Below, in pieces: positions 8,320 to 39,423 of a DNA stretch of 64,000 bases; position 1 is the stretch's first letter, and each line of letters starts with the position of its first letter. This DNA is from Alphaproteobacteria bacterium (lineage in GTDB: Bacteria; Pseudomonadota; Alphaproteobacteria; Rs-D84; CACZYB01). The stretch spans positions 1,616-65,615 of the forward strand of contig JAGBBO010000037.1 in the NCBI GenBank assembly GCA_017938435.1. Direction: 5' to 3'. The translations under genes were made by a program, and so were the position numbers. The notes under the pieces are model-generated. The model saw nothing but the letters and a program-made list of their open reading frames with translations. It did no database searches and was not told the DNA's origin.

Positions 8320-8396
8320 GCACCCATAGCTCAGTTGAATAGAGCGTTGGTTTCCGGAACCAAAGGTCAGAGGTTTGAATCCTCTTGGGTGCACCA
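8320..8396 (+). tRNA. tRNA-Arg(CCG)
   Basis: GCACCCA/TGGGTGC acceptor stem, anticodon arm TTGGT-TTCCGGA-ACCAA, T-arm, encoded CCA. Confidence 0.95.
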
Positions 8397-8463
8397 AGTA
8401 TTTTTTCCATCGCGTTGGTTTCACTTACCACTTTTTATACTCTTGTCTTTCACGGGTGGGCGT

Positions 8464-8533
8464 GGCTATAACCTATTTATTCTAAACTCCTCGCTAACAC
8501 CGCTCGTCATTAAGAATAACTACGGTCATAGTC
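8464..8533 (+). repeat. 70-nt hairpin element (CTCGCTAACACCGCTCG loop), diverged copy of the tRNA-Gln-associated hairpin
   Basis: GGCTATAACC/GGTCATAGTC and TTATTCT/AGAATAA stems; aligns with the 71-nt hairpins at 37.1 and 39.2 kb. Confidence 0.8.
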
Positions 8534-8576
8534 CGGAACCAAAGGTCAGAGGTTTGAATCCTCTTGGGTGCACCAA
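8532..8576 (+). repeat. 45-bp direct repeat of the tRNA-Arg 3' half (copy of 8353-8397)
   Basis: Identical TCCGGAACCAAAGGTCAGAGGTTTGAATCCTCTTGGGTGCACCAA, offset 179 bp. Confidence 0.95.
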
Positions 8577-8711
8577 ATTCTCACAAAATAAATATTGAAT
8601 ATAAATAAATTTTCGTCAAATAAAATATCTTGAACTTTACAGGAAAAATAGTATAATTTTTTGCAATCTACTTTAATAGATGATAATAACAAAAAAGAAA
8701 GGATTATTAAA

Positions 8712-9731
8712 ATGACAGTAAAAGTAGCTATAAATGGTTTTGGTCGTATCGGAAGAATGACTTTCCGTGCATTGATTGAAAGTGGTAGAGAGGATGTTGA
8801 AGTTGTTGCAATCAACGATTTGGCAAGTCCTGAATCTTCACTTCATCTTTTGAAATATGATACAGTTCATGGCAGACTTCCAGTAGAAGCAAAATTGGAA
8901 GGTGATATGCTTATTGCTGGTTCACAAAAGGCAAAAATGTTTGCTATCCGTGATCCAAAAGAATATCCATGGAAAGATTTAGATATCGATGTTGTTTTTG
9001 AATGCACAGGTATTTTCACAGAACGCGAAAAAGCACAAGTTCATCTTGATGCTGGTGCAAAAAGAGTTTTGGTTTCTGCTCCTGCAAAGGGTGCTGATTT
9101 AACTGTTGTTTATGGTGTTAACCAAGACAAAATTACATCAGATATGAGAGTATTCTCAAACGCATCTTGCACAACAAACTGCTTGGCTCCTGTTGTAGAA
9201 GTTTTAAACAGATATTTTGGTATTTCACACGGTTATATGACAACAATTCACTCATATACTGGTGACCAAGTAACATTGGATAGAGATTTAAAAGGTAATC
9301 TTTACCGTTCACGTTCTGCTGCACAAAACATTATTCCAACAACAACTGGTGCGGCTAAGGCTATCGGTCTTGTTATCCCAGAATTAGCTGGTAAACTTGA
9401 CGGTGCTTCAACACGTGTTCCAACACCTGATGTTTCACTTGTTGACTTCAAATTTGTTGTAAACAAAGATAAAGTTACAGCAGAAGAAATTAACGAAGCT
9501 ATTGTTAAAGAAGCTGCAACAGAAAGATACAAAGGCATCCTTTGCACAAACAATGATGCACTTGTTTCATCAGATTTCATTCACAACCCTGCATCATCAA
9601 CTTTTGATTTAAAAGAAACAAAAGTTATGGGCGACAATTTCGTTCGTATCGTTTCATGGTATGATAACGAATGGGGTTTCTCAAATCGTATGTTAGATAC
9701 TGCTGTTGCTATTGGTAAATCAATCAAATAA
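8712..9731 (+). CDS. gap: Glyceraldehyde-3-phosphate dehydrogenase (type I)
   Basis: INGFGRIGR, SNASCTTNCLAP, WYDNEWGFS; ATG at 8712 with AAAGGA RBS. Confidence 0.98.
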   Translation: MTVKVAINGFGRIGRMTFRALIESGREDVEVVAINDLASPESSLHLLKYDTVHGRLPVEAKLEGDMLIAGSQKAKMFAIRDPKEYPWKDLDIDVVFECTGIFTEREKAQVHLDAGAKRVLVSAPAKGADLTVVYGVNQDKITSDMRVFSNASCTTNCLAPVVEVLNRYFGISHGYMTTIHSYTGDQVTLDRDLKGNLYRSRSAAQNIIPTTTGAAKAIGLVIPELAGKLDGASTRVPTPDVSLVDFKFVVNKDKVTAEEINEAIVKEAATERYKGILCTNNDALVSSDFIHNPASSTFDLKETKVMGDNFVRIVSWYDNEWGFSNRMLDTAVAIGKSIK

Positions 9732-9750
9732 TAGTAGTTTAAAAAAAAGA

Positions 9751-9782
9751 AAAAGGCTCTCTGTGATAAGGGAGCTTTTTTT
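9751..9782 (+). terminator. Intrinsic terminator of gap
   Basis: GGCTCTCT/AGGGAGCT stem followed by a T-tract. Confidence 0.7.
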
Positions 9783-9815
9783 ATTAAAAAATATGTAATA
9801 CAACAGTATATTAAA

Positions 9816-10051
9816 CTTGTATCCACTTGGATGCGGGACCGTAGAAAGTCCGAAACAAAGATAGGGGCATAAAAAATCTTTTTATGCTTAACCCCACGGT
9901 AAAATGTGAGGAGTCCTTGATGAATGTTCAGATATGGAGGGAGAATAAAAAAACATCCCCCACAAAATGGGGGATACTTCATTTCAAATATAATAATATC
10001 GTGGCATTTATAAAAGGGCGGAAAAAACTCTCGCCCTTTTCATCCCTCCCG
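9816..10051. ncRNA. Candidate structured non-coding RNA or element remnant, unassigned
   Basis: GC-richer than neighbouring spacers, with a series of hairpins and a GGAGGGA/TCCCTCC long-range pair; no family recognised. Confidence 0.35.
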
Positions 10052-10052
10052 T

Positions 10053-10262
10053 TTAATCTTTATTAGATTTTTTTGGTTGTGTTGCATATCCATAAAGTAA
10101 ACAAAGTGCAGCTATACCAACAAGTAAATAAATTATCTTTGCAATAATTCCTACACCAAATAAAACTTCTACTAAATTAAAATTAAATCCACCTATCAAT
10201 CCCCAATTAAGGGCTCCTATCAAAACTAATGGTCGGCAAACGAAATTCATAATTGTATTCAT
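10053..10262 (-). CDS. DUF378 family small membrane protein
   Basis: LVLIGALNWGLIG.FNFNLV..LFG...IIYLLVGIAAL. Confidence 0.88.
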   Translation of the reverse strand: MNTIMNFVCRPLVLIGALNWGLIGGFNFNLVEVLFGVGIIAKIIYLLVGIAALCLLYGYATQPKKSNKD

Positions 10263-10401
10263 TTTTTTCTCCTTTTGTTTTGTTAATTAAATGCTTTCGC
10301 AATGTTCATAATATCAAATAATACTCTTTGTGTCAGTAGGTATATCTTCGGATAGAAAAATCATTTAATAACAAATATTTTTTTATTTAAGGAGGTTCAA
10401 A

Positions 10402-10749
10402 ATGAATAAATTTTTTCCACCACAAAAAGCAATAGAAAATGCTAAACTTGGACTATACTTACACAAAAAATATAATCGTGGAGGTCTTTCCTTATCCCAA
10501 GCAAAAGAAAAAGGCATAGACAGTGGACTTACCCGTGCACAACAAATTATATCTGGAAATCCCTTACCTATTGAAATAATTAAAAAAATGTCAAGGTTCA
10601 ATCGCCACCGTAAAAACTTTCGCCCAGAAATAAAATTAAAAGACGGTGGCCCAACTGCCGGAACTATTGCCTGGCTTTTATGGGGTGGCGACGAAGGTAT
10701 AAATTGGGCAATACAAAAAAGCAAAGAATATAGACCTATGGAAAAATAA
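10402..10749 (+). CDS. Hypothetical protein with a phage-type IAWLLWGGD motif
   Basis: AAGGAGG RBS; G..RA.Q...L....IKKM..F.RH...GP..G.IAWLLWGGD.G..WA resembles, from recall, a domain of phage head-region proteins. Confidence 0.7.
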   Translation: MNKFFPPQKAIENAKLGLYLHKKYNRGGLSLSQAKEKGIDSGLTRAQQIISGNPLPIEIIKKMSRFNRHRKNFRPEIKLKDGGPTAGTIAWLLWGGDEGINWAIQKSKEYRPMEK

Positions 10750-10813
10750 ATATCATCATGTTATAAAATTACTACCTTTTAAAAAGGTAAAAACATAAAT
10801 GAAAGGAGGCACA

Positions 10814-11167
10814 ATGGATTTAAAAGAAATTCAGACTTTTATCGAAAGTGATTATTTAGAATGGAACACCTATTTTAAGAATCAGGATAAAAAAACTGAA
10901 GCTTTTGCTATTATGTTAAAAATATCAGAAGAATCAGGCGAACTTGCTCGTGAAGTTTTACGATCTTTTGGTTATGCAAATCAAGAGCGTCTAAATGAAC
11001 CAAGCCAGCTCGACAATGAACTTGCTGATGTTCTTATCAACACCATGCTTCTTGCAAGATGTTTGGATATTGATGTTCCTCATATCTTGGAACGAAGAAT
11101 GGAAATGATAAGGGAAAAAATAAAAAACAAAAGCAAAGAAAAGCCATGTGAGGATTGTGGGTGCTAG
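10814..11167 (+). CDS. MazG-like nucleotide pyrophosphohydrolase
   Basis: K.SEESGELAREVL...ELADVL; AGGAGG RBS before MDLKEIQ. Confidence 0.85.
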   Translation: MDLKEIQTFIESDYLEWNTYFKNQDKKTEAFAIMLKISEESGELAREVLRSFGYANQERLNEPSQLDNELADVLINTMLLARCLDIDVPHILERRMEMIREKIKNKSKEKPCEDCGC

Positions 11168-11220
11168 GCATAATTAAATATGCTCCGTATTAACTTTTAA
11201 AGACTTTCGACAGTTCCAAA

Positions 11221-11247
11221 AAACCCTGATTTTTAGTCAGGGTTTTT
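11221..11247. terminator. Intrinsic terminator
   Basis: AAACCCTGA/TCAGGGTTTTT. Confidence 0.7.
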
Positions 11248-11297
11248 ACAAATAAAAAAACCTCTCCAAAAGGAAAGGTTTATCAAAAATCAAAACA

Positions 11298-11477
11298 TTA
11301 TTTTTTTGCTGCACCAACAAGAATCAAAAGTGCACAAATTCCAAAGATTATATTTATGATTTTTACTATATCACCTGAAAAAACCATACTTACCAAATCA
11401 TAACCAATCGCACTAAGTCCACAATTTAATGCAGCAAACAATACTACTGGTCCACAAAGTTTCAATAATGATTTCAT
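11298..11477 (-). CDS. Second DUF378-like small membrane protein (59 aa, absent from the ORF track)
   Basis: MKSLLKLCGPVVLFAALNCGLSAIGYDLVSMVFSGDIVKIINIIFGICALLILVGAAKK; AAGGA RBS; paralog of 10053-10262. Confidence 0.78.
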   Translation of the reverse strand: MKSLLKLCGPVVLFAALNCGLSAIGYDLVSMVFSGDIVKIINIIFGICALLILVGAAKK

Positions 11478-11604
11478 TTTTATTTCCTTTCATCTATGTC
11501 TTGTGATTTTATTCACAATTTTATTTTATTAAAACAGAACCTACTAGTCAAGAAAAAAGCCCTTCCCAGCGGAAGAGCTTTTTCTTTTTTCTAAAAACCT
11601 TAAA

Positions 11605-14229
<2,625 letters not shown>

Positions 14230-14371
14230 TTAAAAGCAAGGAAAATCCTAACTTTTTTCGATATTTCAAAACCTATTTTTTACAAAAAAAACCAATTTTT
14301 TTGATCGAAAATTATAAAAATCGTTTTAAATGCGTTTTTATGCGTTTTTATTAAAAATTTACTAGACAAAA

Positions 14372-15082
14372 TTAAAGATTCATATACCTTTTTTGCAAAT
14401 TTTTTGATAATTTTTCTATTGAATATCTAAGCATAGTCCTTGGCATAACACTAGCATACTCATCCAAAAACAATAAAAGTTGATTATATCCTTCATCAGA
14501 ACTTTTTCCCATTTCCCGTAAAATCCAACCCACAGCCTTATGCATTAAATCATGTTTATGAGAAATAAACTTTTTTGCTAAACTAATCAATATATCAAAT
14601 TTTCCATTTTTAACTATAATCCAATTTGCTACAACACTCATACGCTCACTCCACAAATGCCCTATATCAGATAAATTATAAAGCAAACTATAGTCATCTA
14701 TTAACAAACAATATTTACCTAAAATTTTATAAACTGATAAATCAACTAAATCCCAATTATTTATATAGTTTACATTTTTTATATAAAGGTTAACAATTTC
14801 CTTTTTAACATTCAAATCTGATTTATTAAAAATCTCTACCATTAAAAGCAATGCAAATAATCTAACTTCATGATATGAATTATGTAAAAGTTTTTGAATT
14901 ATATCAAAATCCCTAACATCTTTATATTTTTTTACAAGGATTCTAATCGTTGGATTTTTAAGTCCATAAAATTTATCCCCTTCAGCATATTCACCCTTAC
15001 CTGTTTTAAAAAATCGTAATTGACCCTTTGCAATTTTTGAATTACTTAAATTTTGAATATCATTTATAATATCATCATACAT
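14372..15082 (-). CDS. DNA alkylation repair protein (AlkD-like)
   Basis: FFKTGKGEYAEGD.F.G, INNWDLVD, HKAVGWILREMGK, MPRTMLRYSIEK; probable ATG at 15082. Confidence 0.88.
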   Translation of the reverse strand: MYDDIINDIQNLSNSKIAKGQLRFFKTGKGEYAEGDKFYGLKNPTIRILVKKYKDVRDFDIIQKLLHNSYHEVRLFALLLMVEIFNKSDLNVKKEIVNLYIKNVNYINNWDLVDLSVYKILGKYCLLIDDYSLLYNLSDIGHLWSERMSVVANWIIVKNGKFDILISLAKKFISHKHDLMHKAVGWILREMGKSSDEGYNQLLLFLDEYASVMPRTMLRYSIEKLSKNLQKRYMNL

Positions 15083-15146
15083 ATTTTTTCCTTGCACAAA
15101 ATTCCTTATAATTTTACCATATAAAAAATAAAAGGAAATAAAAATA

Positions 15147-15614
15147 ATGAAACGATTTATAAAATTTTGTATCGCCGGCGGAACCGGAGCCATAGTAAAT
15201 ATTTTTATATTCACTATATTAAACTTATCAAATGTAAATTATATTTTCAGTTCGTTTTTATCATTCATAATATCGGCAACCACAACATACGAAATAAATG
15301 CCTCATGGACTTTTAATGACCGAGGTCAAAAAAAATCAAAAAAATTGTGGGCAAAATTTATGTGTATCTGCACTATCACTTTAGGTATAAATTTACTAAC
15401 ATTATATTTATCTGAAAAGTTTCTTATGCCAGCATTAAATAACTATTCATTTTTTCAAAAAACATTCGAAATAACCGGCTTTTTACTCAAAACCGACATA
15501 TTGCAAAAAATTACAGCCATCTATTCTCAATGTCTTGGTATTGGTGTTGCAACTATATTTAATTTTATCGGAAATAACTTTATAATTTTCAAAAAAAGAA
15601 CTAATTCATCATAG
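15147..15614 (+). CDS. GtrA family membrane protein
   Basis: RFIKFCIAGG.G..VN, N..WTF, FNF..N; four hydrophobic segments. Confidence 0.85.
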   Translation: MKRFIKFCIAGGTGAIVNIFIFTILNLSNVNYIFSSFLSFIISATTTYEINASWTFNDRGQKKSKKLWAKFMCICTITLGINLLTLYLSEKFLMPALNNYSFFQKTFEITGFLLKTDILQKITAIYSQCLGIGVATIFNFIGNNFIIFKKRTNSS

Positions 15615-16338
15615 ATTTTATTTTACCTCTACTAAATGTCATTTTTACAACATTAAGCATAGCCTCAAAAAAAATCTTTTTACTCATCTTGGATTTTCCA
15701 ACTCTTCTATCTTCAAAAATAATTGGTATTTCAACTATTTTTAATCCAGCCAAAATATTTCTAAATTTCATTTCTATTTGAAAACAATAACCATTCGAAA
15801 TAATAGTTTTAAGATTTATTTTTTCCAAAGATTTTCTTGTATAACAATTATACCCACCGGTTAAATCCTTAATGGAACTTAAAAGCAAAAATCTTGCATA
15901 CAACGAACCACCTTTTGAAATAATTTTTCTACCTATTCCCCAATTTTTCACACCACCATTTTTTACATACCTACTCCCAATACAAACATCTGCACCATTT
16001 TTAATTGCATCAAGCATATCTTTTATATAAATAGGATTATGCGAAAAATCAGCATCTTGAGAAATAAATGTATCAAACCCATTTTCCATAGCCCACTGAA
16101 AACCTTGAATATACGCAGTCCCTAAACCTAATTTTCCACTTCTATGAAGAATATGAAGTCTGTCACCAAACACTTTGTCTTTAATTAAATTATCAACCAA
16201 AGCCCCTGTTCCATCCAACGAATTATCATCCACAACTAAAATACTAACATCTGGATTTATATCAAAATCCTTTGAAATAATTTCTTTTATGTTTTCTATT
16301 TCATTGTATGTTGGAATGATTATACAAACTTTTTTCAA
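15601..16338 (-). CDS. GT2 polyprenol-phosphate glycosyltransferase (DPM synthase-like)
   Basis: IIPTYNE, VVDDNS.DGT, GLGTAY, DADFSH, GSRY, F.DRR.G.SKMS; probable TTG start at 16338 with GAGG RBS. Confidence 0.9.
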   Translation of the reverse strand: MKKVCIIIPTYNEIENIKEIISKDFDINPDVSILVVDDNSLDGTGALVDNLIKDKVFGDRLHILHRSGKLGLGTAYIQGFQWAMENGFDTFISQDADFSHNPIYIKDMLDAIKNGADVCIGSRYVKNGGVKNWGIGRKIISKGGSLYARFLLLSSIKDLTGGYNCYTRKSLEKINLKTIISNGYCFQIEMKFRNILAGLKIVEIPIIFEDRRVGKSKMSKKIFFEAMLNVVKMTFSRGKIKSMMN

Positions 16339-16348
16339 ATCAACCTCT

Positions 16349-16570
16349 TTAATTTTTAGAAGTATTAAAACAAGCCATACACAAAGCAATTATATATGGA
16401 AAACCGAATAAAAAACTCAAATAACAAAGTGTTTTTACAACTTCGACATCTTGCTTTGCTAATCCTCTTTTTTTTGCAATAGAAATAGGTAATTTCCAAA
16501 TCTCATACGCCACATAAATACAAGCAAAAAAGGCACAAAAATAAAAAATACCAAAAAGAATGTTATTCAT
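16349..16570 (-). CDS. Small membrane protein, superinfection-immunity/DUF3302-like
   Basis: TM segment, LP..IA..R, second TM ending IIAL..A; GGAGG RBS before ATG 16570. Confidence 0.55.
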   Translation of the reverse strand: MNNILFGIFYFCAFFACIYVAYEIWKLPISIAKKRGLAKQDVEVVKTLCYLSFLFGFPYIIALCMACFNTSKN

Positions 16571-16629
16571 AAAAACCTCCCACTTAAATAACAAAAAGAA
16601 AAAGATTCGACAACGACTTCCCTATCAAG

Positions 16630-16717
16630 TGGCGGAAAGAGGGGGATTCGAACCCTCGATACCTTGCGGTATGCACGCTTTCCAAGCGTGTGCAATCGAC
16701 CACTCTGCCATCTTTCC
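16630..16717 (-). tRNA. tRNA-Ser(GGA)
   Basis: GGAAAGA/TCTTTCC acceptor stem, CACGC-TTGGAAA-GCGTG anticodon arm, long variable arm, CCA. Confidence 0.95.
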
Positions 16718-17804: not shown

Positions 17805-18010
17805 CTTTTTTCTTCTCTTCTTCTTCAGCTTTTTTCTTCTCAGCAGCAATCCTCTCTTCTTCAGCTTTCTTCTTCTCAGCCGCAACCCTCTCTTCCTCAG
17901 CTTTCTTCTCAGCCGCAGCCTTCTCTTCCTCAGCTTTCTTCTTCTCAGCAGCAGCCTTCTCTTCTTCGGCTTTCTTCTTTTCAGCAGCAGCCCTCTCTTC
18001 TTCGGCTTTC
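17805..18010 (-). repeat. Intragenic ~36-bp tandem repeats encoding (A)EEE(K/R)(A/V/I)AAEKKK
   Basis: About five imperfect units visible in DNA and protein. Confidence 0.85.
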
Positions 18011-18737
18011 TTTAATGATTCTTCATCATTAACAGGTTCAGAAACAGCCTCTTCCACTACAGAAGTTACAGCATTCACCTTACAATCATTTATACTCATA
18101 GCTCCAACCGAAGATTCTGTTCCATCCGGACATTTCTCACATTTAGCAATATAATTATCACCTATAGATACAGCATAAAAATTAGCCTTACACTGTGCAA
18201 CATAAGCACTATCAAAACCCCAGTCATATGCCTCTTCATCTGTTGCCTTTCTTGCATTTGCATTTGCAGGAAGGGAACATTCACTATCTGTATTAGGGTT
18301 AATATATTTACTTTTTCTCCTTTCCATTGGAACACCAATAGGACAAATATCATAATTAGAAACACAAACCGAAGATTTCAAAATATAACCATCATTACAT
18401 TCAAAATAAACAGCCTCATTTTCATCTTCAATCCATGCAAGTTTCCTAAGCCCAGATTCTTCAGTCCACAATTCTTCATACGCATTTTCTGGTGCATCAC
18501 ATTTTTTTGTCTTCGCAGAATAATAAACTCCATCTACTGCACGTAAAACTACACCAACTTTACAAAAATTCTTTTTTACTTCTTCAACAGGAGTTTCCTC
18601 AACAACAGAAGTTTCCTCAACCTCCGTTTTCAAAGATTTTGATGTTATTGTTTTTTTAGAAGCACTTGCCCTTTTTGATGATTTTGATGAATTCGCAGCT
18701 GCACGCTTACTTGATTTTGTAGAAGAAACCCCTGATT

Positions 18738-18844: not shown

Positions 18845-18944
18845 GAAGTTTTAGCCTTCGAAGAACCAGACGACTTAGATGAAGCCCTCTTCGACGACCT
18901 TGCACTCTTCGTTTTTGCTACAGTAATATCTGACATAAAAATAA

Positions 18945-19362: not shown

Positions 19363-19370
19363 TTTATCTC

Positions 19371-20417: not shown

Positions 20418-20420
20418 CTC

Positions 20421-31049: not shown

Positions 31050-31085
31050 AAAAGAACTGGGATTTAAAAGATCCCAGTTTTTTTT
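31048..31085. terminator. Bidirectional intrinsic terminator
   Basis: AACTGGGAT/ATCCCAGTT stem flanked by A and T tracts. Confidence 0.75.
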
Positions 31086-31545
31086 ATCTTGTTTTTTGAT
31101 TATAAATATCTGGAATATTCAAATTATGATTTGAAACAACTTTTTGTAGAAGTTGTCTTAACTTATCTTCTGAAACAAACCCCCTAACAAAATCAGCAAC
31201 AACACTTGAAATATATTGTTTTTCTTCCATAATAGTTTTGCCTTCTTTTTTAGCAATATCCATAACTGCTTGATTATTAACAAAAGTTCCTGTTTGATAT
31301 CTCATATTATTCATAACAGCATTTCCATATTCGTCCTCTGAAAATACACCTAAAATCATATAATCGGATTGTTTAATACCTTTTTTATCCAATATTTGAC
31401 GAAGATAATAATGTCCCAAATGAATAACTTCAATTTTACCATCAACTTCATTTGCAAAATTATCATAAACTTTTTCAATTTTGCCAGTTTTTTTATTAAA
31501 ATATACAATAAAACTTATAAGTTTCATAATAACCTCTTTGTTCAA
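31084..31545 (-). CDS. Hypothetical protein
   Basis: ORF of about 147-153 aa; the ATG start at MKLISF has a GAGG RBS. Confidence 0.65.
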   Translation of the reverse strand: MNKEVIMKLISFIVYFNKKTGKIEKVYDNFANEVDGKIEVIHLGHYYLRQILDKKGIKQSDYMILGVFSEDEYGNAVMNNMRYQTGTFVNNQAVMDIAKKEGKTIMEEKQYISSVVADFVRGFVSEDKLRQLLQKVVSNHNLNIPDIYNQKTR

Positions 31546-31641
31546 AGTTTTAATTATTTATACCAAAATTTTTTGATTTGTCAACAAATAATAATAGTAT
31601 TTAATCAAAAAATATATTATAATGAAACAAAGGGGATAAAA

Positions 31642-31977
31642 ATGATAAAACAAGAAAAACTTTATTTAATTATAACCAATAAAAACAATGAAAAATGCCT
31701 TTTTCTTACACCTCAAACTATTTCTAAACTATTACCTATAAAACCAGAAATACTATATGATGGTGGCGAACATGCCATATTATATCGTAATACACAAGAA
31801 ACAATCATACTTGACTATCTACCATCATCACAAAGGGAAGATTTAAAAACCCTTTCTGAAATATTAACTGTTGAATATGATGTTAATACAAAAACTATTG
31901 TAAACGAATATATTTCAAAAGTTACTATAGTAAACAAGATACCTGATATATCAAATGATTTAGAAATAAAAAAATAG
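31642..31977 (+). CDS. Hypothetical protein
   Basis: ATG at 31642 with AAGGGG RBS; YDGGEHAILYR, IILDYLP. Confidence 0.7.
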   Translation: MIKQEKLYLIITNKNNEKCLFLTPQTISKLLPIKPEILYDGGEHAILYRNTQETIILDYLPSSQREDLKTLSEILTVEYDVNTKTIVNEYISKVTIVNKIPDISNDLEIKK

Positions 31978-31985
31978 GCATATTT

Positions 31986-32474
31986 CTATGCCTTTTTAAC
32001 CTTTATTTTATGTATTTTTTGTTTTGCTAGTTCTGTTTTTGGAAGATTGATTTTTAATACCCCATTTGTAAATTTTGCATCAATCTTATCAATATCAACA
32101 TCACTTGGTAATGCAACAGTTCTACTAACCATACCATACGATCGTTCGGAAAAATACATACCATCGGTTTTTTCTTCAAAATCGTTGTGTTTTTCACCTC
32201 GTATAGTTAGAAAACCATCATCCGACACATCAATATCTATATCATCATCTTTCATTCCAGGAAGCTCTGCTTGAATTTGCACATTATTTTCACCATCAAT
32301 CATCTCGATTTTTGGTTCAATAAAATCAAAATCCCCAAGTGGAGTTAACGGATAATCCAAAATATTAAAAAAATTATCAAAAGCACGATTTATATTGTGG
32401 CGAAGTTCGCCAAGTTTCTTACCATACTGCTTGGATGGAAGATTTTTTCTACCTTCTGATTTGCTATACACCAT
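31986..32474 (-). CDS. Hsp20/alpha-crystallin small heat-shock protein
   Basis: AELPG...DIDI, LTIRGEK, ERSYG..SR...LP, A.F.NGVL.I.LPK. Confidence 0.93.
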   Translation of the reverse strand: MVYSKSEGRKNLPSKQYGKKLGELRHNINRAFDNFFNILDYPLTPLGDFDFIEPKIEMIDGENNVQIQAELPGMKDDDIDIDVSDDGFLTIRGEKHNDFEEKTDGMYFSERSYGMVSRTVALPSDVDIDKIDAKFTNGVLKINLPKTELAKQKIHKIKVKKA

Positions 32475-32558
32475 ATTGTACCTCCCTTTTAAAAAAGCCA
32501 CACTATAGTAAGGATAGCACCAAACAAAATCTAATTAAATAGGTATATCTTCAAAATC

Positions 32559-32864
32559 CTAGTAATCATCCTCTTCATCAGAATAATAATTTGTTTTTGA
32601 TACAGAATTTTGTTCATCATTATCCATATCAAAAAACATCTCTGATTCAGAAAGATCGACAACTTCATCATTAACACCCAAATCTTCAATTTGATCATCA
32701 GGTTTAACTTCAGTTTTTTTCTTTTTTCTGATAAACTCTATTTCATCATCAATAGTCAAGTTTTTCTTACATTTCGGACAAACAACAACTTCCTTTTTCA
32801 TATCGTAAAACATTGCACCACAAAAAGGACAAATATGTTTTTTACCCCAGTTTTCTTTAACCAT
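32559..32864 (-). CDS. TIGR02300 / FYDLN-acid family protein
   Basis: WG.K..CP.CG..FYDM.K....CPKC followed by an acidic tail. Confidence 0.88.
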   Translation of the reverse strand: MVKENWGKKHICPFCGAMFYDMKKEVVVCPKCKKNLTIDDEIEFIRKKKKTEVKPDDQIEDLGVNDEVVDLSESEMFFDMDNDEQNSVSKTNYYSDEEDDY

Positions 32865-32935
32865 ATAGACCTCTCTATTTTAAAGGTTAATCATTTGAAA
32901 AATATAAGTCATATATGAAAAAGTCAAGAAAAAAT

Positions 32936-33601
32936 TTACCAACCCTTACAAATACCTTTTACCCTAGCATATTCTTCCTTATTATCATAGGATTGATTTT
33001 TATCCATCAAAGCATCTTCTAACTTTAATTTAAGAAGTTTTATATTATCGCTTTCAAACACCATTTTTTGAATTTTATTTCCAATTTTCTTACCACTAAC
33101 AGGTCCATCAAAAAATATCGGTCCAACATCCCCCGCAATTCGTTTAAGCTCATCTAAAATTAAATTTCCATAATATTTAAGTTCTTGTCTATAAATTTTA
33201 ATATGCCCCTGTTCATGCTCTTTTATTGCATTGTATTCACAAGTTCCTTCTTGATATTTATCATCTATCAAAACATCTAAATTTTTATAACCTATAGAAA
33301 AATTTATACTGGAAAGTATTGCACACACGCCATCATCTATTTTATACTTTTCAAAACCAAAATCATAACCAATACTAAAATCAGCATAAGTAAGACCCAA
33401 AGTAGCGCTTGGATTTTTTAAATTTTTGAACTTAGAAATTTCAAATCTTGAAACAGATTTATATTCAACATCCCCGTATTTTATATCTGTTGTAATTTTT
33501 GGTTCTTTATAAAATCTTTCACAAATATCATTCGCATAAACATTTGTTGAAAAAAGTAAAAACCCAGTTATTTTTAAACTTTTTCTGACAAAATTACTTA
33601 A
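32936..33601 (-). CDS. Secreted hypothetical protein with HExxH (DUF922-like putative Zn peptidase); start uncertain
   Basis: Signal-like FLLFSTNVYA, LGLT, C.Y.AIKEHEQGH. Confidence 0.6.
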   Translation of the reverse strand, partial: LSNFVRKSLKITGFLLFSTNVYANDICERFYKEPKITTDIKYGDVEYKSVSRFEISKFKNLKNPSATLGLTYADFSIGYDFGFEKYKIDDGVCAILSSINFSIGYKNLDVLIDDKYQEGTCEYNAIKEHEQGHIKIYRQELKYYGNLILDELKRIAGDVGPIFFDGPVSGKKIGNKIQKMVFESDNIKLLKLKLEDALMDKNQSYDNKEEYARVKGICKGW

Positions 33602-36029
33602 AAGAGTCAAGATAAACCTCCACAAATTTATCCCCATGAATCTTTCGTAATTCCTCAACCAAAAGCACTTGTTTCCTACCACTATTAAATATTTGAAGGT
33701 ATGGACCAAGACCTGATAAATCAACATTTAAAATCACAGATTCATCAATAGATGGTTTTCTGAAAAGTATTGCATATTTCAAATCTTTAAATATTTTTCC
33801 CTGAATAAATGCCATTTCTTTTGGTGTAAGGTTCCATGTTTCATAATCTTCCACCCTCGCCTGAACATTTCGGAAAAATATTTGTGTCTGACATTGACCA
33901 CGAATAACCTCTCCTATACCAAGTTTATCCAAAATATTTGGTTGTTGGAATGCAGCTAAATAAGCCTGCCTTTTCTTTCTACCTTCTTGTAATCCTATAA
34001 CAAAATTCTTTCTAAATTCTGGATTTTGAAGCATAGGTGCAGTTTCATCAATTATAATAAGAGATGGATCCCCTGTTCTACCAGTAATATTTTGGATTCT
34101 GTTCATAAGATAACTAACCACTGCCGGTGCCAAAGTTCCATCTTCAAATATATATGTAAAATCAAATGCTGTAAATCTGTTTGATAAATCAAGACTATCA
34201 TTTTCACTGTTAAATAAACTACCATATTGATTATCATCAACCCAGCGGTATAATTCCCTTCTCATTTTTCCAGCGGGCGAAAAACAAGATTTATAAAGAT
34301 TTTTCAAAGATCTTTTCTCTGGCTCTAAATAATCAAATGCTGTTGTAACAGCCCTTGCAATTTCCTTTTCACTTGTTGCATCATTAACCAAAGTTATCTC
34401 TTTAAGCCACCTTCTTAAAAAAGCCCTATTTTCAGGATTATCATCAATCCTAAATGGGTTAAGATGGGCAATAACCCCTGTCTTTTTTACATCTTTATCC
34501 TTGGTATCACCATCAAAATTTACATACGACCCACCTATTGCATGAGTAAATATTTCCGCACCCCTATATCTATCAAAAAAGAAACATTTTAAATCTTTAA
34601 ATCTTAACGATTGCCCAGCTAAAAATGAATAAAGTGTGGTTTTACCTTGACCTGTTGGACCAATTGCAACAGTATGTGCAACAGCAGTAGGCTCTTCTGA
34701 TACATGGAATTCAAATTGATATGCAGTTCCTTGATATGTTGGGAAAATAGCAACCGGACCTTCACCCCAATCACATTTAGAAAGACCTTCTGGTTGTTTT
34801 TCAAAATTAAATGATGTTGCAACAGCCCTTGAAAGCATTTTATACATTCTTGGATATTTATCATATGTTGGAAATTGAGAAAACCACGAAGCCTGAGCTA
34901 TCCAACCTTCACGCACAGGAACAATACCATAAAGTCGGCAAACTTTTTCTATTTCAAAAACAGCTTTATCAAGTTCTTCTAAACTATCCGCACTTACAAA
35001 AAATGTTTCTGCGTAATTAACCAAAGTTTGATGATCCTCATCTCCCTGCTCTATCAAAGCAAGTGCATCATCAAATTGTCTTAACACATCGTATGAAAAA
35101 GTTGTTGAACTTGCCATTTTTCGTTGATTAACCAAAACCATCTGTGCCTTAAGTTTTGATATAGGGAAAAGATTATGAAGCACAGTAATTTCAAAATTTT
35201 TCGCAAGAATATCTGAAAGCATTTGTTCATCAACAATATTTGATTGTTGTTTAATACCAACAACAGCCATATATTTTGTTCTGTTACCAGAAGTAAATCT
35301 TATATAACCCTTATTACTAAAGAAAATTTCATCTGAAACCAAAAGTTCAGAAATTCTATCATAAATAATATTTTGAGATCTTGGATTCGGCCTACTTATC
35401 GGATTGATAATATGAGCAAAGAAAGAAATAGGACTTTCTGATTTACCATCTTCCTTTAACATCTCTGCACCAAAATTTGAAAGTATAGCCTTAAGATTCG
35501 AAGATGCAGTTTCCAAATCTTTCATTGCATCTTTTCTATCATTAACAGAAATAACGATATAGTGGGTATTCATAAATATTTCATTCTGAGCTTCGTTCCA
35601 CTTTTCGCTTATATCTTTCAAAAGTTTATTATAATTATTATCAATTTTTTCCGAATGAATTTTTTCCCTAATTGTAAAAATTCTTGTTTCGACACTTATT
35701 TCAGAAAGACTATCTATCCACTTTTTTCTATCTTCTAAAAACTCTTGAATAACTTCCCTTTTTGCAAAAGCAATAGAAGCACCATTAACTTTGAACACCC
35801 TAACCAAAGTTCCATTCTGACAAAGTATTGTTTTTTTATCATTCAAAATTCTTTCAAATGGTAAATAGTTTACAAGTCTTGTATCAAAAGGTTTTGGTAA
35901 AAACATATTTACCCTATCTGACATAAAAACCACAGTAATCACAGCCAGTGCAATTAAAACAAAAATCAAACCCCAATAATAAGGATCAGATAAATTCGAA
36001 ACTAAAAGATTTTCTAAATTAAAACTCAT
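33594..36029 (-). CDS. virB4: Type IV secretion ATPase VirB4
   Basis: WG.GP, F.FH, HT..IGPTGQGKTT, FDRYRG, LNPF, IIIDE, RK. Confidence 0.92.
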   Translation of the reverse strand: MSFNLENLLVSNLSDPYYWGLIFVLIALAVITVVFMSDRVNMFLPKPFDTRLVNYLPFERILNDKKTILCQNGTLVRVFKVNGASIAFAKREVIQEFLEDRKKWIDSLSEISVETRIFTIREKIHSEKIDNNYNKLLKDISEKWNEAQNEIFMNTHYIVISVNDRKDAMKDLETASSNLKAILSNFGAEMLKEDGKSESPISFFAHIINPISRPNPRSQNIIYDRISELLVSDEIFFSNKGYIRFTSGNRTKYMAVVGIKQQSNIVDEQMLSDILAKNFEITVLHNLFPISKLKAQMVLVNQRKMASSTTFSYDVLRQFDDALALIEQGDEDHQTLVNYAETFFVSADSLEELDKAVFEIEKVCRLYGIVPVREGWIAQASWFSQFPTYDKYPRMYKMLSRAVATSFNFEKQPEGLSKCDWGEGPVAIFPTYQGTAYQFEFHVSEEPTAVAHTVAIGPTGQGKTTLYSFLAGQSLRFKDLKCFFFDRYRGAEIFTHAIGGSYVNFDGDTKDKDVKKTGVIAHLNPFRIDDNPENRAFLRRWLKEITLVNDATSEKEIARAVTTAFDYLEPEKRSLKNLYKSCFSPAGKMRRELYRWVDDNQYGSLFNSENDSLDLSNRFTAFDFTYIFEDGTLAPAVVSYLMNRIQNITGRTGDPSLIIIDETAPMLQNPEFRKNFVIGLQEGRKKRQAYLAAFQQPNILDKLGIGEVIRGQCQTQIFFRNVQARVEDYETWNLTPKEMAFIQGKIFKDLKYAILFRKPSIDESVILNVDLSGLGPYLQIFNSGRKQVLLVEELRKIHGDKFVEVYLDSFK

Positions 36030-36040
36030 TTTTTCCTCTT

Positions 36041-36334
36041 TTAGGCAGTAAACTTATTTCCATTTTCTTTAATAAGGTTTTTTGTTTTCGCCCTTATATT
36101 TCTTCTCGACATAATTATATTATCAATATGGGGTTCATTTTTTCCAATAATAACTGAAACAAAATGAAGAATTATAAAGAAAATTATTGGCACCCACATA
36201 TAAACACCAAATCCAAAAAACAAAAGCCCCATCATAAAAATAATAGTTAAAATAACATTAAAAATGAATAAACCAAATGGTGCAAAGAAAATTTGCATTG
36301 GTTGAGCAACTGATTTAAGTAATTCCTCTTTCAA
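36041..36334 (-). CDS. virB3: VirB3-like inner membrane protein
   Basis: P...F.AP, two TM segments, H......EP; directly upstream of virB4. Confidence 0.75.
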   Translation of the reverse strand: MKEELLKSVAQPMQIFFAPFGLFIFNVILTIIFMMGLLFFGFGVYMWVPIIFFIILHFVSVIIGKNEPHIDNIIMSRRNIRAKTKNLIKENGNKFTA

Positions 36335-36406
36335 AATTCCCCCTCTTATAATATAAATATATTATAAGTTTATTATAAAACAAAAGCAATAATAAAACAA
36401 GGAATT

Positions 36407-36964
36407 TTAAGAATTAGCTTTATTTCGTCTTTCTAAACGATATTTTTCAAATCTTATAGTAAGTTTATATCCAACAAATGCACTTATAATAGCCCATGGT
36501 AAACAACCTATTGCCATAGAAACACCCCAATCTTTAAGAAGTATTTTAAAAAGCAAAAGCCATTTATCTGAAAAACTTAAATTACCCATAAACGCATCTT
36601 TGAAAATCCCAGAAAGTTTTCCATAACCACTTATATCACCAATATTTCCACGCATAATTTGACCTGTGACATAGAAAATATAATAAACAGGAATCATTGT
36701 AAAAACATTTGTAACCCATGTATATGCAATTCCAAGAATAAGTGAAAAATCAATATGTAAAACTTTTCTAAAGAAAATCCATGTCATAAACACAATCCAC
36801 ATCTGTATTCCAACAAGTGGAGTCATAGCCCAAAAAAGACCAACTGCAACACCCATTGCCTTAACTTCCGGTGGTAAAGAAAGTCTTGCAACAGGAATCA
36901 CCAACTTCATTTTCAAAAGTCTTTTAAATCTTTCTTTTAATGTATATTTTTTATGTTTTACCAT
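36407..36964 (-). CDS. DUF2062 family membrane protein
   Basis: P...A.G.A.G.F....P..G.Q, TW.TN.FT..P.Y. Confidence 0.85.
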   Translation of the reverse strand: MVKHKKYTLKERFKRLLKMKLVIPVARLSLPPEVKAMGVAVGLFWAMTPLVGIQMWIVFMTWIFFRKVLHIDFSLILGIAYTWVTNVFTMIPVYYIFYVTGQIMRGNIGDISGYGKLSGIFKDAFMGNLSFSDKWLLLFKILLKDWGVSMAIGCLPWAIISAFVGYKLTIRFEKYRLERRNKANS

Positions 36965-37017
36965 ATTATCTTAATACCTTAACTATTTGATTTTACAAAA
37001 ATTTTTTAAATATTAAA

Positions 37018-37186
37018 TTCGTTGCCGAAGCCTCTCACGCCTATAACTTCATGGCTGGGGTGGCTGGATTTGACACCGAACCCAGCTGTTCTTGATTTCG
37101 AGCGTTGTTAGCGAGAAATCCTAGAATTGCTTGTTCGTTGCCGAAGCCTCTCACGCCTATAGCTTCATGGCTGGGGTGGCTGGATT
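37018..37186 (-). repeat. tRNA-Gln(CTG) 3' repeat: 116-bp unit (18-nt spacer + 79-nt hairpin core + 19-nt tRNA 3' end) plus a partial unit
   Basis: 37018-37070 repeats at 37134-37186 with one mismatch; the core is near-identical to the units at 39.1-39.3 kb. Confidence 0.92.
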
Positions 37187-37242
37187 CGAACCAACGAATG
37201 GCGGTACCAGAAACCGCTGCCTTACCACTTGGCGACACCCCA
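37168..37242 (-). tRNA. tRNA-Gln(CTG)
   Basis: TGGGGTG...GCGGT-TTCTGGT-ACCGC...GGTTCGAATCC...CACCCCAGCCA. Confidence 0.95.
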
Positions 37243-37254
37243 AAACTAAACCAA

Positions 37255-37282
37255 ATTATATAATCAAACTAAAAGATGTCAA
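37255..37282 (-). promoter_or_regulatory. Sigma70 promoter of tRNA-Gln(CTG)
   Basis: TTGACA-N16-TATAAT on the minus strand. Confidence 0.7.
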
Positions 37283-37299
37283 GATTAAAAGATTTTATA

Positions 37300-37328
37300 T
37301 TGAAAACTGAAATAATCCTATATAAAAT
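37300..37328 (+). promoter_or_regulatory. Sigma70 promoter of the 37352 ORF
   Basis: TTGAAA-N17-TAAAAT. Confidence 0.55.
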
Positions 37329-37351
37329 ACTATTAAAAAGGAAAAAATAAT

Positions 37352-37861
37352 ATGAATAAAAATGTTCAATTTACTGAAAATATTGCCGAAAGATTAAGAA
37401 AATTATCAAAATTTTCCATGGATAAAAATCTTCGTCCACAATTAGAAAATATTATTAAAAAATTTGGTGGAAAACTTGAACAATATGATAATTTTGCAGG
37501 TCTTTACATACTTGATAATGACAATTTTATCATATCATTAGATAAATTCACTTCACCTCTTCGTGATAATTTTTATATCACAAAAGCTCTTGGTGATTAT
37601 TTACTTTTTGGAAATGGTGATAAAAAACAATATGGTTCTTTTCGTGTTGATGATACAAATTATTTATCTAATTTATTTGCATATAGTTTTCTTACCCCAA
37701 AAGATGAATTTTTAAAGAAATCAAAAGAATTTAAAAATTCCACTTTGTTATTAGCTGCATATTTTCAAATACCAACTGATTTTATAGAAAAAAGACAAGA
37801 ATATTTAAAAATAATATCAAAAAAACATAAATTAATCTATAAAAAGGAAAAAATAAGATAA
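37352..37861 (+). CDS. ImmA/IrrE-like protein with a degenerate metallopeptidase motif
   Basis: II...GG, F.I.L..FTSPLRDNF.I.KALGDYLL (usually HELGH), N.FA..FL.P..EF, LA.YF. Confidence 0.65.
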   Translation: MNKNVQFTENIAERLRKLSKFSMDKNLRPQLENIIKKFGGKLEQYDNFAGLYILDNDNFIISLDKFTSPLRDNFYITKALGDYLLFGNGDKKQYGSFRVDDTNYLSNLFAYSFLTPKDEFLKKSKEFKNSTLLLAAYFQIPTDFIEKRQEYLKIISKKHKLIYKKEKIR

Positions 37862-38259
37862 TGACTAAAGTAAATTACAGAATTATTTATGCCGACACCG
37901 ACCAAATGGGTATTGTTTATCATGCAAACTATTTAAAATATTTTGAAATACTTCGTGGCGAAGTTATGCGTGAAAATGGTCTTACATATCATGATTTTGA
38001 AACAATGGGTTTTTCTCTTCCTGTTATTGAATCACATTGTGAATATAAATACCCTGCAAAATATGATGATGTAATAGAAATAACTGGGTTTGTAAGTGAA
38101 TTAAAAGGGTTAAAAATGAAATTTGAATGTGAAATACATTGTAGTGACAAACTTATTTGCAAAGGTTATACCATCCACACTTGTTTAAATAAAGATGGTC
38201 GCCCAATCAAATTTCCTGAACAGTTAATAAAATTATATGAAAAAAGCCTTAAAATTTAA
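37861..38259 (+). CDS. YbgC/FadM family acyl-CoA thioesterase
   Basis: RI.YADTDQMGIVYHANYLKYFE, PAKYDD. Confidence 0.9.
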   Translation: MTKVNYRIIYADTDQMGIVYHANYLKYFEILRGEVMRENGLTYHDFETMGFSLPVIESHCEYKYPAKYDDVIEITGFVSELKGLKMKFECEIHCSDKLICKGYTIHTCLNKDGRPIKFPEQLIKLYEKSLKI

Positions 38260-38987
38260 GGCTTTAATTTAATATTTATTCTTGCAAAATCAACTGAACT
38301 ATCATCTTTTGCAATAGTAAAATCACAATTTTTATCAACAAACAAAGATTTTACTAGCACTTTTTTATCAGAAAGCACAGCCGACTTTTTAAAATCGACA
38401 CTAATTTCTGAAACATCAAACTCTTGTTTTAAATTTTCAAACAAAGCATCTTCACAAAGAGAAATATAAATTGCATTATTTATATGATGATTAACATCAA
38501 CATCATCATATCTTAAATCTTTCATTTCTTCAAAATTATAAGATTCCACAGACCCCATTTTATCCAAAGGAATTTCCATACTTTCCTCTAATTCAATTTT
38601 TGAACAATCGAAAATATTTTGCACAATCAATGGTCTAAGTCTTTCAAGTCCAATCAAAACCCATTGACTTACACCTTTAATCAAAATATTACCATTATCA
38701 TCAAATACTTTAAATTCTCTTATTCCTGTTGGACCAACAAATTTACTTGGATAAGTTTCAATAGTAATTTTGTCTTTAAATTTAGGAAGTTTATCAATAA
38801 TAACATGATATTTTGCACAAACCCAAGCACAATTTTTTTCCAAACATTCTTCATATCCTACCCCAAGTCTGTCTGCATGATCACTTGCCAATTCTTGAAA
38901 ACAATCAAAAAGATGACGAAGTTTCATTTTCCCAAACTCATTACATTGATAAGTTTTTATTTCAAATTTTTCTTGTAATTTACTCAT
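38256..38987 (-). CDS. Acyl-ACP thioesterase (FatA/B-like)
   Basis: FQE.A..HA..LG, REF, S.WVLI....RP, D.D.NHHINNA.Y. Confidence 0.88.
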   Translation of the reverse strand: MSKLQEKFEIKTYQCNEFGKMKLRHLFDCFQELASDHADRLGVGYEECLEKNCAWVCAKYHVIIDKLPKFKDKITIETYPSKFVGPTGIREFKVFDDNGNILIKGVSQWVLIGLERLRPLIVQNIFDCSKIELEESMEIPLDKMGSVESYNFEEMKDLRYDDVDVNHHINNAIYISLCEDALFENLKQEFDVSEISVDFKKSAVLSDKKVLVKSLFVDKNCDFTIAKDDSSVDFARINIKLKP

Positions 38988-39094
38988 ATTAAAACCTCTT
39001 AAATTTATAAAATAATTTTATTTATAAACATAAATTTTGTAAAGAAAAATATAAAATATTATGTAATATTACTTACAAAATTCTTTCTAAATAT

Positions 39095-39367
39095 CAGTAA
39101 AAATTCGAAGTGGCTGAGGTATGGTTGGATTTGACACCGAACCCAGCTGTTCTTGATTTCGAGCGTTGTTAGCGAGAAATTCTAGAATTGCTCGTTCGTT
39201 GCCGAAGCCTGTAGCAGTAAAAACTTGAAGTGGCTGGGGTGGCTGGATTTGACACCGAACCCAGCTATTCTTGATTTCGAGCGTTGTTAGTGAGAAATCC
39301 TAGAATTGCTCGTTCGTTGCCGAAGCCTGTAGCAGTAAAAATTCGAAGTGGCTGGGGTGGCTGGATT
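39095..39367 (-). repeat. tRNA-Gln(TTG) 3' tandem repeat: two 118-120-bp units (20-nt spacer + 79-nt hairpin core + tRNA 3' end)
   Basis: TGGCTGGGGTGGCTGGATT at 39349 and 39231, degenerate at 39111; the core repeats with few substitutions. Confidence 0.93.
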
Positions 39368-39423
39368 CGAACCAACGAATGGCGGAACCAAAATCCGCTG
39401 CCTTACCACTTGGCGACACCCCA
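39349..39423 (-). tRNA. tRNA-Gln(TTG)
   Basis: Same body as tRNA-Gln(CTG); anticodon arm GCGGA-TTTTGGT-TCCGC. Confidence 0.95.

Follow-up and report, generated by a model that had tools for sequence, protein, structure and literature searches.

The stretch of DNA analysed here, 64 kb in length and called the window throughout, belongs to the metagenome-assembled genome (MAG) of an uncultured gut alphaproteobacterium (G000; 1.1 Mb, 31% GC, 55 contigs, 93% complete), and ARAGORN places four tRNA genes in it. Three of these, the genes for tRNA-Arg(CCG), tRNA-Gln(CTG) and tRNA-Gln(TTG), are each followed by a spacer, a hairpin of 70-71 nt and a second copy of the gene's own 3' end, and it is this repeated unit, together with the family of related units in other genomes, that is considered here. 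The hairpin core CTCRCTAACANCGCTCG is present four times in the window, at positions 8490 (+), 37099 (-), 39160 (-) and 39278 (-); its expected count there is none, and none of 100 shuffles contained any match, which confirms the sequence-only reading of this DNA, according to which four hairpins lie behind these three genes along with copies of the genes' own 3' ends. The four hairpins have folding z-scores between -2.7 and -4.5, all of them better than shuffles.

Behind tRNA-Arg(CCG) (8320-8396, + strand; Rfam tRNA score 67.3 bits), the host of copy 1, a 15-nt spacer is followed by 11 nt (8412-8422) that copy the anticodon arm on its 5' side and end in TTC, the two together occupying 8397-8422 (+), and then by a long 5' module (8423-8463, +) that starts with ACTTAC, ends with GGGTGGGCGT and is conserved at four loci of the ~178-nt class described below. 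Hairpin copy 1 (8464-8533, +) is 70 nt long, ends in GTC, has a fold z-score of -3.6 and scores 76.8 bits with R1, a covariance model built from ten copies of the family; the earlier description of this copy as a hairpin with a duplicated 3' end is upheld, with its extent refined to these 70 nt. The tail (8534-8575, +) duplicates the final 42 nt of the tRNA from the anticodon loop to the CCA end, repeating tRNA positions 36-77, and belongs to an exact 43-nt match at a distance of 179 nt.

On the opposite strand, tRNA-Gln(CTG) (37168-37242, -) is the host of copy 2 and is followed by a 25-nt spacer (37143-37167, -), a 71-nt hairpin (37072-37142, -; recognized by its fold and by an R1 score of 94.8 bits) and a partial second unit (37018-37071, -). 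The latter consists of the tRNA-Gln 3' end at 37052-37071 and, at 37018-37051, a spacer with the first 9 nt of a hairpin; the duplication, a 54-nt match at a distance of 116 nt, therefore runs 34 nt beyond the tRNA end, through the second spacer and 9 nt into the second hairpin. Copies 3 and 4 are hosted by tRNA-Gln(TTG) (39349-39423, -), behind which an array of 2.3 units of 118 nt (39095-39348, -) was detected by Tandem Repeats Finder with a period of 118 and 92% matches. In the first unit the spacer leads to a hairpin at 39251-39321 and a copy of the tRNA 3' end at 39231-39250, in the second to a hairpin at 39133-39203 and a decayed copy of the tRNA 3' end at 39111-39132, and the outermost part is 16 nt of a third spacer. 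The two hairpins score 90.2 and 90.7 bits with R1. The tails at the Gln genes are 19-20 nt long and start in the T-loop.

Across the family the hairpin is 70-73 nt long and imperfect, its loop region (YCTCRCTAACANCGYTYG) being invariant and the foot at its 3' end (TCGGKTTC) conserved; these two parts are kept in sequence, while the stems vary between subfamilies and the 5' heads are variable (GGCAAC, GTATCC, GTAATC and others). The 3' end is TC in 58 of 62 copies. When 62 distinct sequences were aligned to the model, 83% of the cells were paired as against 29-45% with the partners slid by 1-3 columns, compensatory changes on both sides were present in 22 of 24 pairs and none of 500 shuffles reached any of five covariation measures, although these figures are generous, the alignment (A3) having been fitted to the model, which favours pairing, and the sequences being related. 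An independent MAFFT alignment contains G-C to A-U swaps within the core. The hairpin is a selected structure, and the paired stems and shared loop claimed from the window alone are borne out in the wider family, as is the absence of the element from Rfam: apart from tRNA, no family, rtT and the tRNA-like and ribozyme families included, attains its gathering score in the window or in 20 related loci, and at E values up to 10 nothing plausible overlaps the window hairpins. Between G008 and G013 the hairpin is identical in 71 of 71 positions, compared with 21 of 27 in the spacer and 16 of 21 in the tail, which reflects either constraint or recent homogenisation. Two simple roles were rejected. 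No T-run follows the hairpin as a terminator would require, and a tRNA-like fold of hairpin and tail can be formed by the Gln copies, which pair GCTGG with CCAGC, but by inspection of the sequences not by the other subfamilies.

All seven copies in the source genome are tRNA-linked; the three outside the window lie behind tRNA-Glu(CTC), behind a tRNA-Met that is cut by a contig end and, in decayed form, behind a displaced 3' end of tRNA-Ser(CGA). With R1, 13 of the 19 genomes of the family were found to carry the element. The census comes to 61 copies, single genomes having between 0 and 14 of them and three well-assembled genomes of the genus having none. The plain core pattern is present in nine of 18 relatives within the family and in none of 42 genomes that belong to other families of its order. 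When 185,579 species genomes were scanned for the pattern, 54 stretches came up, and those confirmed by R1, which was run only on the scan stretches passed to it, come from MAGs titled Alphaproteobacteria, Rickettsiales, proteobacterium or 'bacterium', with two more from G003, which is titled Bacteroidales. The single matches in unrelated phyla are taken to be chance, because the fold listing shows no hairpin there; by our own arithmetic about 100 chance matches to the loose pattern are expected in that much DNA. R1 confirms 14 of 48 metagenome stretches, and no similar DNA was found in phage and plasmid collections. A full unit behind tRNA-Ser(CGA) in G008 (C5:28166-28400, L219), which carries the variant core CTACTCACTAAACCCGTTCG, was not found by R1 at E <= 0.01, and since variants of this kind are missed, the census undercounts the family. 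Many hairpin copies lie at contig ends. G015 is higher in GC, repeat-rich and fragmented, and at its loci L014, L021 and L026 a second short palindromic repeat (GTCATTCCCGCGAAAGCGGGAATC and variants) occurs near the hairpin units, upstream of the hairpins.

ARAGORN finds a co-oriented tRNA ending 23-145 nt upstream of 25 of the 61 copies and an oppositely oriented tRNA upstream of none of the 61; with four extra copies that are read as tRNA-linked, being cut by contig ends or displaced, the total rises to about 29 of 61. Confinement to tRNA 3' flanks, which the sequence-only reading had put forward as a property to be checked, is thus not what is found, the rest of the copies being located at small features, at the 5' ends of protein genes and in prophages. 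The host tRNAs are Arg-CCG, Arg-ACG, Gln-CTG, Gln-TTG, Glu-CTC, Glu-TTC, Leu-CAA, Leu-GAG, Met, Ser-CGA and Ser-GGA, to which the metagenome copies add Arg-CCT. A small conserved feature that has a terminator and a CU-rich loop stands ahead of about seven copies. This feature (loci L010, L012, L098 and L099; genomes G012, G001, G013 and G010), a frequent host of the element, has a sigma-70-like promoter, and its terminator hairpin encloses the long CU-rich loop (CCUUUUCUCUCCUUUCCUCC...); nothing in Rfam matches it, and it is a possible small RNA of the anti-Shine-Dalgarno type. In G015, the majority of the 14 copies are found behind a hairpin ending in CCCTCCC and at least two at the starts of protein genes, and elsewhere the element is placed at the 5' end of protein genes that lie on the opposite strand. 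One copy lies between the Cpn10 and Cpn60 genes (groES/groEL), with its junction past codon 4 of the Cpn60 gene, so that the 25 nt which comprise the ribosome-binding site and codons 1-4 occur twice, once on either side of spacer and hairpin.

The prophage copies are located in intergenic stretches of the structural modules of other, larger MAGs, with 1-3 per genome, and are antisense to the phage genes. One sits between the tail terminator gene and a tail gene, and in another place an AAA_14/DUF4143 gene, inserted between portal and protease genes, has a copy on each side. In related prophages this portal/head-protease slot carries differing inserted genes (L045:2251-3474, -; L147:1972-3129, -): the cargo is an AAA_14/DUF4143 ATPase between two hairpins in one case and a Fic/DOC-domain protein with a helix-turn-helix elsewhere, and on a human-gut metagenome contig (L174) a single hairpin stands beside a gene read as Fic-like in the same slot.

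The loci follow a common layout. In element orientation, a host sequence ending in TC is followed by A, B, C and A' and then by the rest of the host, where A is a copy of A', B is the spacer that travels with the element, C is the hairpin ending in TC and A' is the host sequence that originally came after the TC. TC precedes the junction at nearly all duplicated loci, and the duplicated host segment measures 14-27 nt, exceptionally 42. Since the host sequence after the TC is present on both sides, the interrupted gene end is rebuilt, be it a tRNA 3' end, the terminator of a small RNA-like feature or, for protein genes on the opposite strand, the ribosome-binding site with the start codon. Junctions in the anticodon loop and the T-loop, which had been interpreted as integrase-type crossover positions, do occur, but acceptor stems, terminator loops and a coding sequence contain junctions as well; the feature they have in common is the TC, not a tRNA position. 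Units behind Gln, Glu, Ser and Arg-CCT tRNAs share the motif CGTTTGCCA in their spacer B. An alternative layout, in which the spacer is the native tRNA trailer and the target duplication has a fixed 45 nt, was rejected, the same motif being present behind different tRNAs and the empty alleles described below being devoid of the spacer. Likewise, near-identical hairpins (0-2 differences) are found at tRNA-Gln, tRNA-Glu, tRNA-Ser(CGA) and tRNA-Arg(CCT), which, together with the finding of no IS110 transposase in G000, led us to reject the idea that loops of the hairpin choose the target in the manner of the bridge RNA of IS110.

The second regularity concerns length. A and A' lie 113-120 nt apart in the main cluster and 168-183 nt apart in a second class. 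At 17 single-unit loci, which are not independent of one another, the period is 115.4 +/- 1.8 nt and the duplicated host segment 21.2 +/- 4.1 nt; host segment and remainder of the unit are correlated with r = -0.91, the spacer compensating for the host segment, and none of 10,000 random pairings is as tight. In the long class (~178 nt), to which the Arg unit of the window belongs, a partial copy of the host gene is split at a TC by a unit of ~112 nt, which contains the conserved 5' module beginning with ACTTAC and ending with GGGTGGGCGT. This module stands immediately upstream of the hairpin at L001, L112, L098 and L099, where the hosts are tRNA-Arg(CCG) and the small RNA-like feature, and in G003, as in the Arg layout of the window, the element splits a partial tRNA copy. 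By way of remark only, 116 nt is about 11 helical turns and 178 nt about 17.

Alleles without B, C or a second A, of the kind to be expected of a mini-element, were found in relatives. tRNA-Gln and tRNA-Arg(CCG) are empty in G005, G006 and G009, tRNA-Ser(GGA) is empty in five genomes (G005, G006, G009, G008 and G013), and tRNA-Ser(CGA) is empty in G013, from which the filled allele of G002 differs by exactly one unit. G016 carries three copies at three loci, identical in spacer end, hairpin and tail, and the one at tRNA-Leu(GAG) bears a tRNA-Arg tail. A single crossover in CCATT, joining the end of tRNA-Leu with a circular Arg-type A-B-C unit, accounts for both Leu junctions; the same copy is also readable as tRNA-Arg-templated repair through microhomologies in CCATT and CCATTTTCA. 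At tRNA-Glu(CTC) of G002 three units are stacked, and the tRNA-proximal one is from another subfamily. The outer two units are common to G008 and G013, a truncation 18 nt into the last hairpin is common to G002 and G013, and a decayed tail is common to G002 and G008. It follows from the order of this stack that new units enter beside the working gene and old ones drift outwards, and the outer, older units are decayed or truncated. Empty alleles, stacked units and foreign tails point to mobility.

The fourth tRNA gene of the window, tRNA-Ser(GGA) (16630-16717), is followed by a spacer-like remnant of 26 nt without a hairpin (16604-16629, -). It resembles the spacers of the Ser-linked units L018, L155 and L092, and the trailers of six empty tRNA-Ser(GGA) loci (two in G006 and one each in G005, G009, G008 and G013) are unrelated to it; we read it as a footprint. 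At 17819-18012 lies a tandem repeat with periods of 36 and 105 nt (5.5 copies, 89% matches, rich in CTTC and CAGC), which is probably a repetitive coding region.

No recombinase gene adjoins any copy, in agreement with the earlier statement that no cognate enzyme is adjacent. G000 has five tyrosine recombinase matches, namely a XerD-like protein, a XerC-like protein, a contig-end fragment and two large DUF6538-type integrases. The XerD-like gene (62137-63105, -; 322 aa) is the sole recombinase in the window and is located 23 kb from the nearest hairpin; it scores 327 bits with the XerD model as against an equivalog cut-off of 329.6 and passes the subfamily model NF001399. The two DUF6538-type integrases lie beside tRNA-Ser(CGA) and tRNA-Leu(TAA), in islands delimited by tRNA-end repeats of 16 and 14 nt. 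At the head of the Ser island (~9 kb; contig C37:195899-205100, L197) is a 658-aa protein with DUF6538 and Phage_integrase domains, and the Leu island (~10.7 kb, C16) has a 505-aa relative. The hairpin is not a part of such islands: neither contains one, and the old Ser(CGA) unit is positioned outside the right repeat of its island. Within the genus, the three element-free genomes have only two Xer-like recombinases each, and eight of ten element-bearing genomes have 3-5 tyrosine recombinases; the other two, which are incomplete, have two and one. In the prophage examined, a large serine recombinase is located at one end and a 317-aa tyrosine recombinase past the tail genes, and as neither adjoins the hairpins, the prophage integrase was discarded as a candidate enzyme.

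Any explanation has to accommodate what is directly observed, namely insertion polymorphism, the TC junction, a duplication that rebuilds the host, addition on the proximal side and a constant unit length. We lean, with somewhat more belief than doubt, towards a gene-less, non-autonomous mobile DNA unit of ~116 nt, with a longer form of ~178 nt, that moves through an intermediate of fixed length. Considering the layout of the loci, such an intermediate would most simply be a tandem unit or small circle; an enzyme presumably acting in trans would cut or exchange it at the TC of the hairpin foot. It could rejoin host DNA at a TC, or through the short identity between the host and a captured host segment, as in Campbell-type recombination; a crossover at the far end of the captured segment, for example in the CCA, would then leave a foreign tail. 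Excision between two TC sites ~116 nt apart could capture a new host sequence and with it a new target specificity, and the prophages that bear copies are a plausible vehicle between hosts.

Several points weigh against this mobile-unit explanation. We found no enzyme tied to the element. G000, at 93% completeness, has no match to the Y1 transposase family PF01797, the control for which matched six of 14 known genomes, and the suggestion of a co-occurring transposase of the type associated with repetitive extragenic palindromic (REP) sequences, the REP-associated tyrosine transposase (RAYT), finds no support in that genome. Reverse transcriptase, PF03432 relaxase and IS110 transposase were also not found in G000, whereas the search for IS91 carries no weight, as its control matched nothing anywhere. 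Only two Xer-like recombinases each are seen in G015, which has 14 copies (77% complete), and in G016, which has three identical ones (92%). The prophage copies are without visible host duplication. The copies are related within and between genomes, hence counts and length statistics overstate their independence, and the generosity of the covariation figures belongs under the same heading. Finally, a mobile unit of this kind leaves unexplained why outer units are so often cut 3-28 nt into the hairpin and what sets the length of 116 nt.

The alternative that survives best, though we consider it improbable, is that the units are parts of a functional RNA made from tRNA trailers: read-through transcription starting at the promoter of the tRNA would yield spacer, hairpin and tRNA 3' end, the imitated 3' end would allow tRNA-processing enzymes to free a CCA-ended product of ~97-160 nt, in the way RttR is freed from the tyrT transcript of E. 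coli, and a protein or an RNA would bind to the conserved loop of the hairpin. Covarying stems with an invariant loop are equally what a structured RNA has, and E. coli offers a like layout with RttR as its annotated small RNA. Considering that the tRNA- and RNA-feature-linked copies are co-oriented with their hosts and lie 23-145 nt behind them, these are very likely co-transcribed, whereas the copies in prophages and those at protein-gene 5' ends run antisense to the genes around them. On the tRNA-sense strand G-T wobbles exceed A-C combinations by 65 to 30. The tail copy is often intact, with 20 of 20 positions identical between species in four of seven ortholog pairs, yet in other cases it is decayed (at tRNA-Glu in G008 and G002, and in the third Gln(TTG) tail of the window) or foreign (in G016), and a copy number ranging from 0 to 14 among close relatives, with none in three well-assembled genomes of the genus, also argues against such a role. 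An RttR-like trailer RNA could, for all that, coexist with mobility.

Still less probable in our estimation is that the units are decayed attachment-site remnants of tRNA-integrating islands, in the manner of cis-mobilizable elements (CIMEs), each unit being what an internal deletion has left of an island that bore an integrase; movement or stacking would then require the action of a related integrase on the attachment sites of the tRNA genes. The direct repeats are indeed tRNA 3' ends beginning in the anticodon loop, the T-loop or the acceptor stem, but a coding sequence and other non-tRNA sites are among the targets as well. G000 possesses two DUF6538-type islands, at tRNA-Ser(CGA) and tRNA-Leu(TAA), although these islands are without the hairpin and the Ser(CGA) unit is external to the right-hand repeat. 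The distribution of recombinases in the genus, where element-free genomes have the Xer pair only and most of the element-bearing ones have more, agrees with this view, but no extra integrase is seen in G015 and G016. The stacking of decayed elements at an attachment site is, in the part of PMC5704250 that deals with it, a described route to CIME tandems; independent internal deletions would, however, not yield one 116-nt unit at a dozen genes, and selected intrastrand pairing is foreign to integrase arm sites.

A purely passive origin, in which the hairpin stalls replication, slippage at TC microhomologies produces the tandems, and ectopic gene conversion through the T-loop and CCA copies the block between RNA genes, is very unlikely, for although the junctions always share 2-4 nt (TC or TTC), the arrays of 1.1-2.3 units are such as slippage yields, the G016 tRNA-Leu copy admits a templated-repair reading and no Y1 or IS110 transposase was found in G000, slippage cannot put a hairpin into prophages, between groES and groEL or at unrelated 5' ends, and neither the conserved loop and 3' foot across subfamilies with differing stems nor the constant unit length is predicted by it. 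Island remnants and slippage with gene conversion each cover a part of the data, and neither explains the constant unit, the conserved loop and foot and the non-tRNA targets together.

The closest known architecture is the 178-nt repeat at E. coli tyrT/tyrV, which we checked on NC_000913: the unit is present in 3.1 copies and overlaps the annotated small RNA RttR. As in the hairpin family, the unit stands directly behind the gene, has its start in the T-loop, its first 19 nt being those of the tRNA end, and contains hairpins, and the array ends in a copy of the tRNA end followed by the native trailer. Its period of 178 nt equals that of the long class, the Gln(TTG) array of the window having 118 nt in 2.3 units. 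Unlike the hairpin family, the E. coli repeat is a single locus in one species, and homology between the two units was not detected, R1 giving at best 7 bits and a local alignment being matched by 44 of 300 shuffles. To our knowledge, the tyrT repeat has not been recognized as a dispersed family, nor do we know of an explanation that makes it more than a one-off.

Other known systems share particular traits with the family. tRNA-integrating islands and CIMEs have in common with it the duplicated tRNA 3' end (attL/attR in islands), the restored gene and stacking at the site; they differ in that the hairpin unit measures 116 nt and not kilobases, ends in a covarying hairpin, has a fixed length, a TC junction and non-tRNA targets, and has no linked integrase. 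CIMEs are described, in the section of PMC5704250 concerned with them, as non-autonomous decayed forms of islands that depend on an integrase in trans. Integron attC sites are similar in that the unit ends in an imperfect covarying hairpin with the recombination point at its 3' foot and stacks in co-orientation, and the two prophage hairpins that flank one inserted gene resemble cassette boundaries. In contrast to attC, the centre of the hairpin is its most conserved part, the core words of attC are absent from its ends and there is no attI platform; moreover, the integron integrase model TIGR02249 gives 132 and 125 bits on the two Xer-like proteins of G000 as against a cut-off of 265, their best matches being XerD and XerC.

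REP sequences and the bacterial interspersed mosaic elements (BIMEs) made of them, like the miniature transposable elements with inverted repeats (MITEs) of the IS200/IS605 group, whose HUH transposases recognise hairpins in single-stranded DNA, are short, gene-less, dispersed, intergenic hairpins with conserved feet that are mobilised in trans, and insertion of the IS200/IS605 type is strand-specific and takes place 3' of a short target word. The sequence-only reading had set the window hairpins apart from an ordinary REP family, and this distinction holds, although traits are shared with both REP and MITE families. The REP/RAYT system has palindromes of 20-40 nt in high copy number, with a head of four conserved nucleotides; the hairpins here are twice as long, at 70-73 nt, their 5' heads are variable, copy numbers are only 0-14 and no Y1 protein was found in G000. 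IS200/IS605 MITEs insert 3' of a fixed short word and do not duplicate their target. Here TC precedes the junction at nearly all duplicated loci and ends 58 of 62 hairpins, but 14-27 nt of the host, exceptionally 42, are duplicated. A classical MITE, with its terminal inverted repeats, short target duplication of fixed length and partner DDE transposase, differs in turn from the asymmetric arrangement of spacer and hairpin and from the variable duplication of 14-27 nt, and no partner element for one was found, the DDE families as a whole not having been searched. A full-text literature search, covering articles and not their supplements, returned no account of such a family, and the motif behind tRNA genes of Methanopyrus, as presented in the portion of PMC5217627 that concerns it, is unrelated.

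The family is a structured, mobile-looking repeat that is new to the libraries searched, and its insertion rule fits no described class; we classify it as a non-autonomous hairpin element, or tRNA-end repeat. A bolder version of the mobile-unit explanation, which we put forward as speculative and on present evidence doubtful, is that it represents a new class of mobile DNA: a gene-less 116-nt hairpin unit, travelling as an intermediate of fixed length that is perhaps a single-stranded mini-circle, would be cut at its foot by a housekeeping or an unrecognised enzyme and would heal each insertion by swapping a part of its own sequence for an equal length of host sequence, the tyrT repeat of E. 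coli being a fossil of the same process. Were this so, genes for tRNAs and small RNAs, and even groEL at its start, could house the unit unharmed.

What does such an element mean for the genomes that carry it? As a marker, the family logs the order of insertions at a locus, and it breaks assemblies, as the many copies at contig ends indicate. If the mobile-unit explanation is true, its rule of a TC junction, a duplicated host segment and a constant unit length is followed by no described transposon, integron or integrase system, and repeats of tRNA ends behind tRNA genes, the one at E. coli tyrT among them, would have a general explanation. A short hairpin that steers harmless insertion beside a chosen short identity may also be of practical interest. 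For the reduced genomes of gut alphaproteobacteria, the element would be a parasite aimed at the most essential and most transcribed small genes that leaves these genes intact, and it seems to spread without breaking its hosts.

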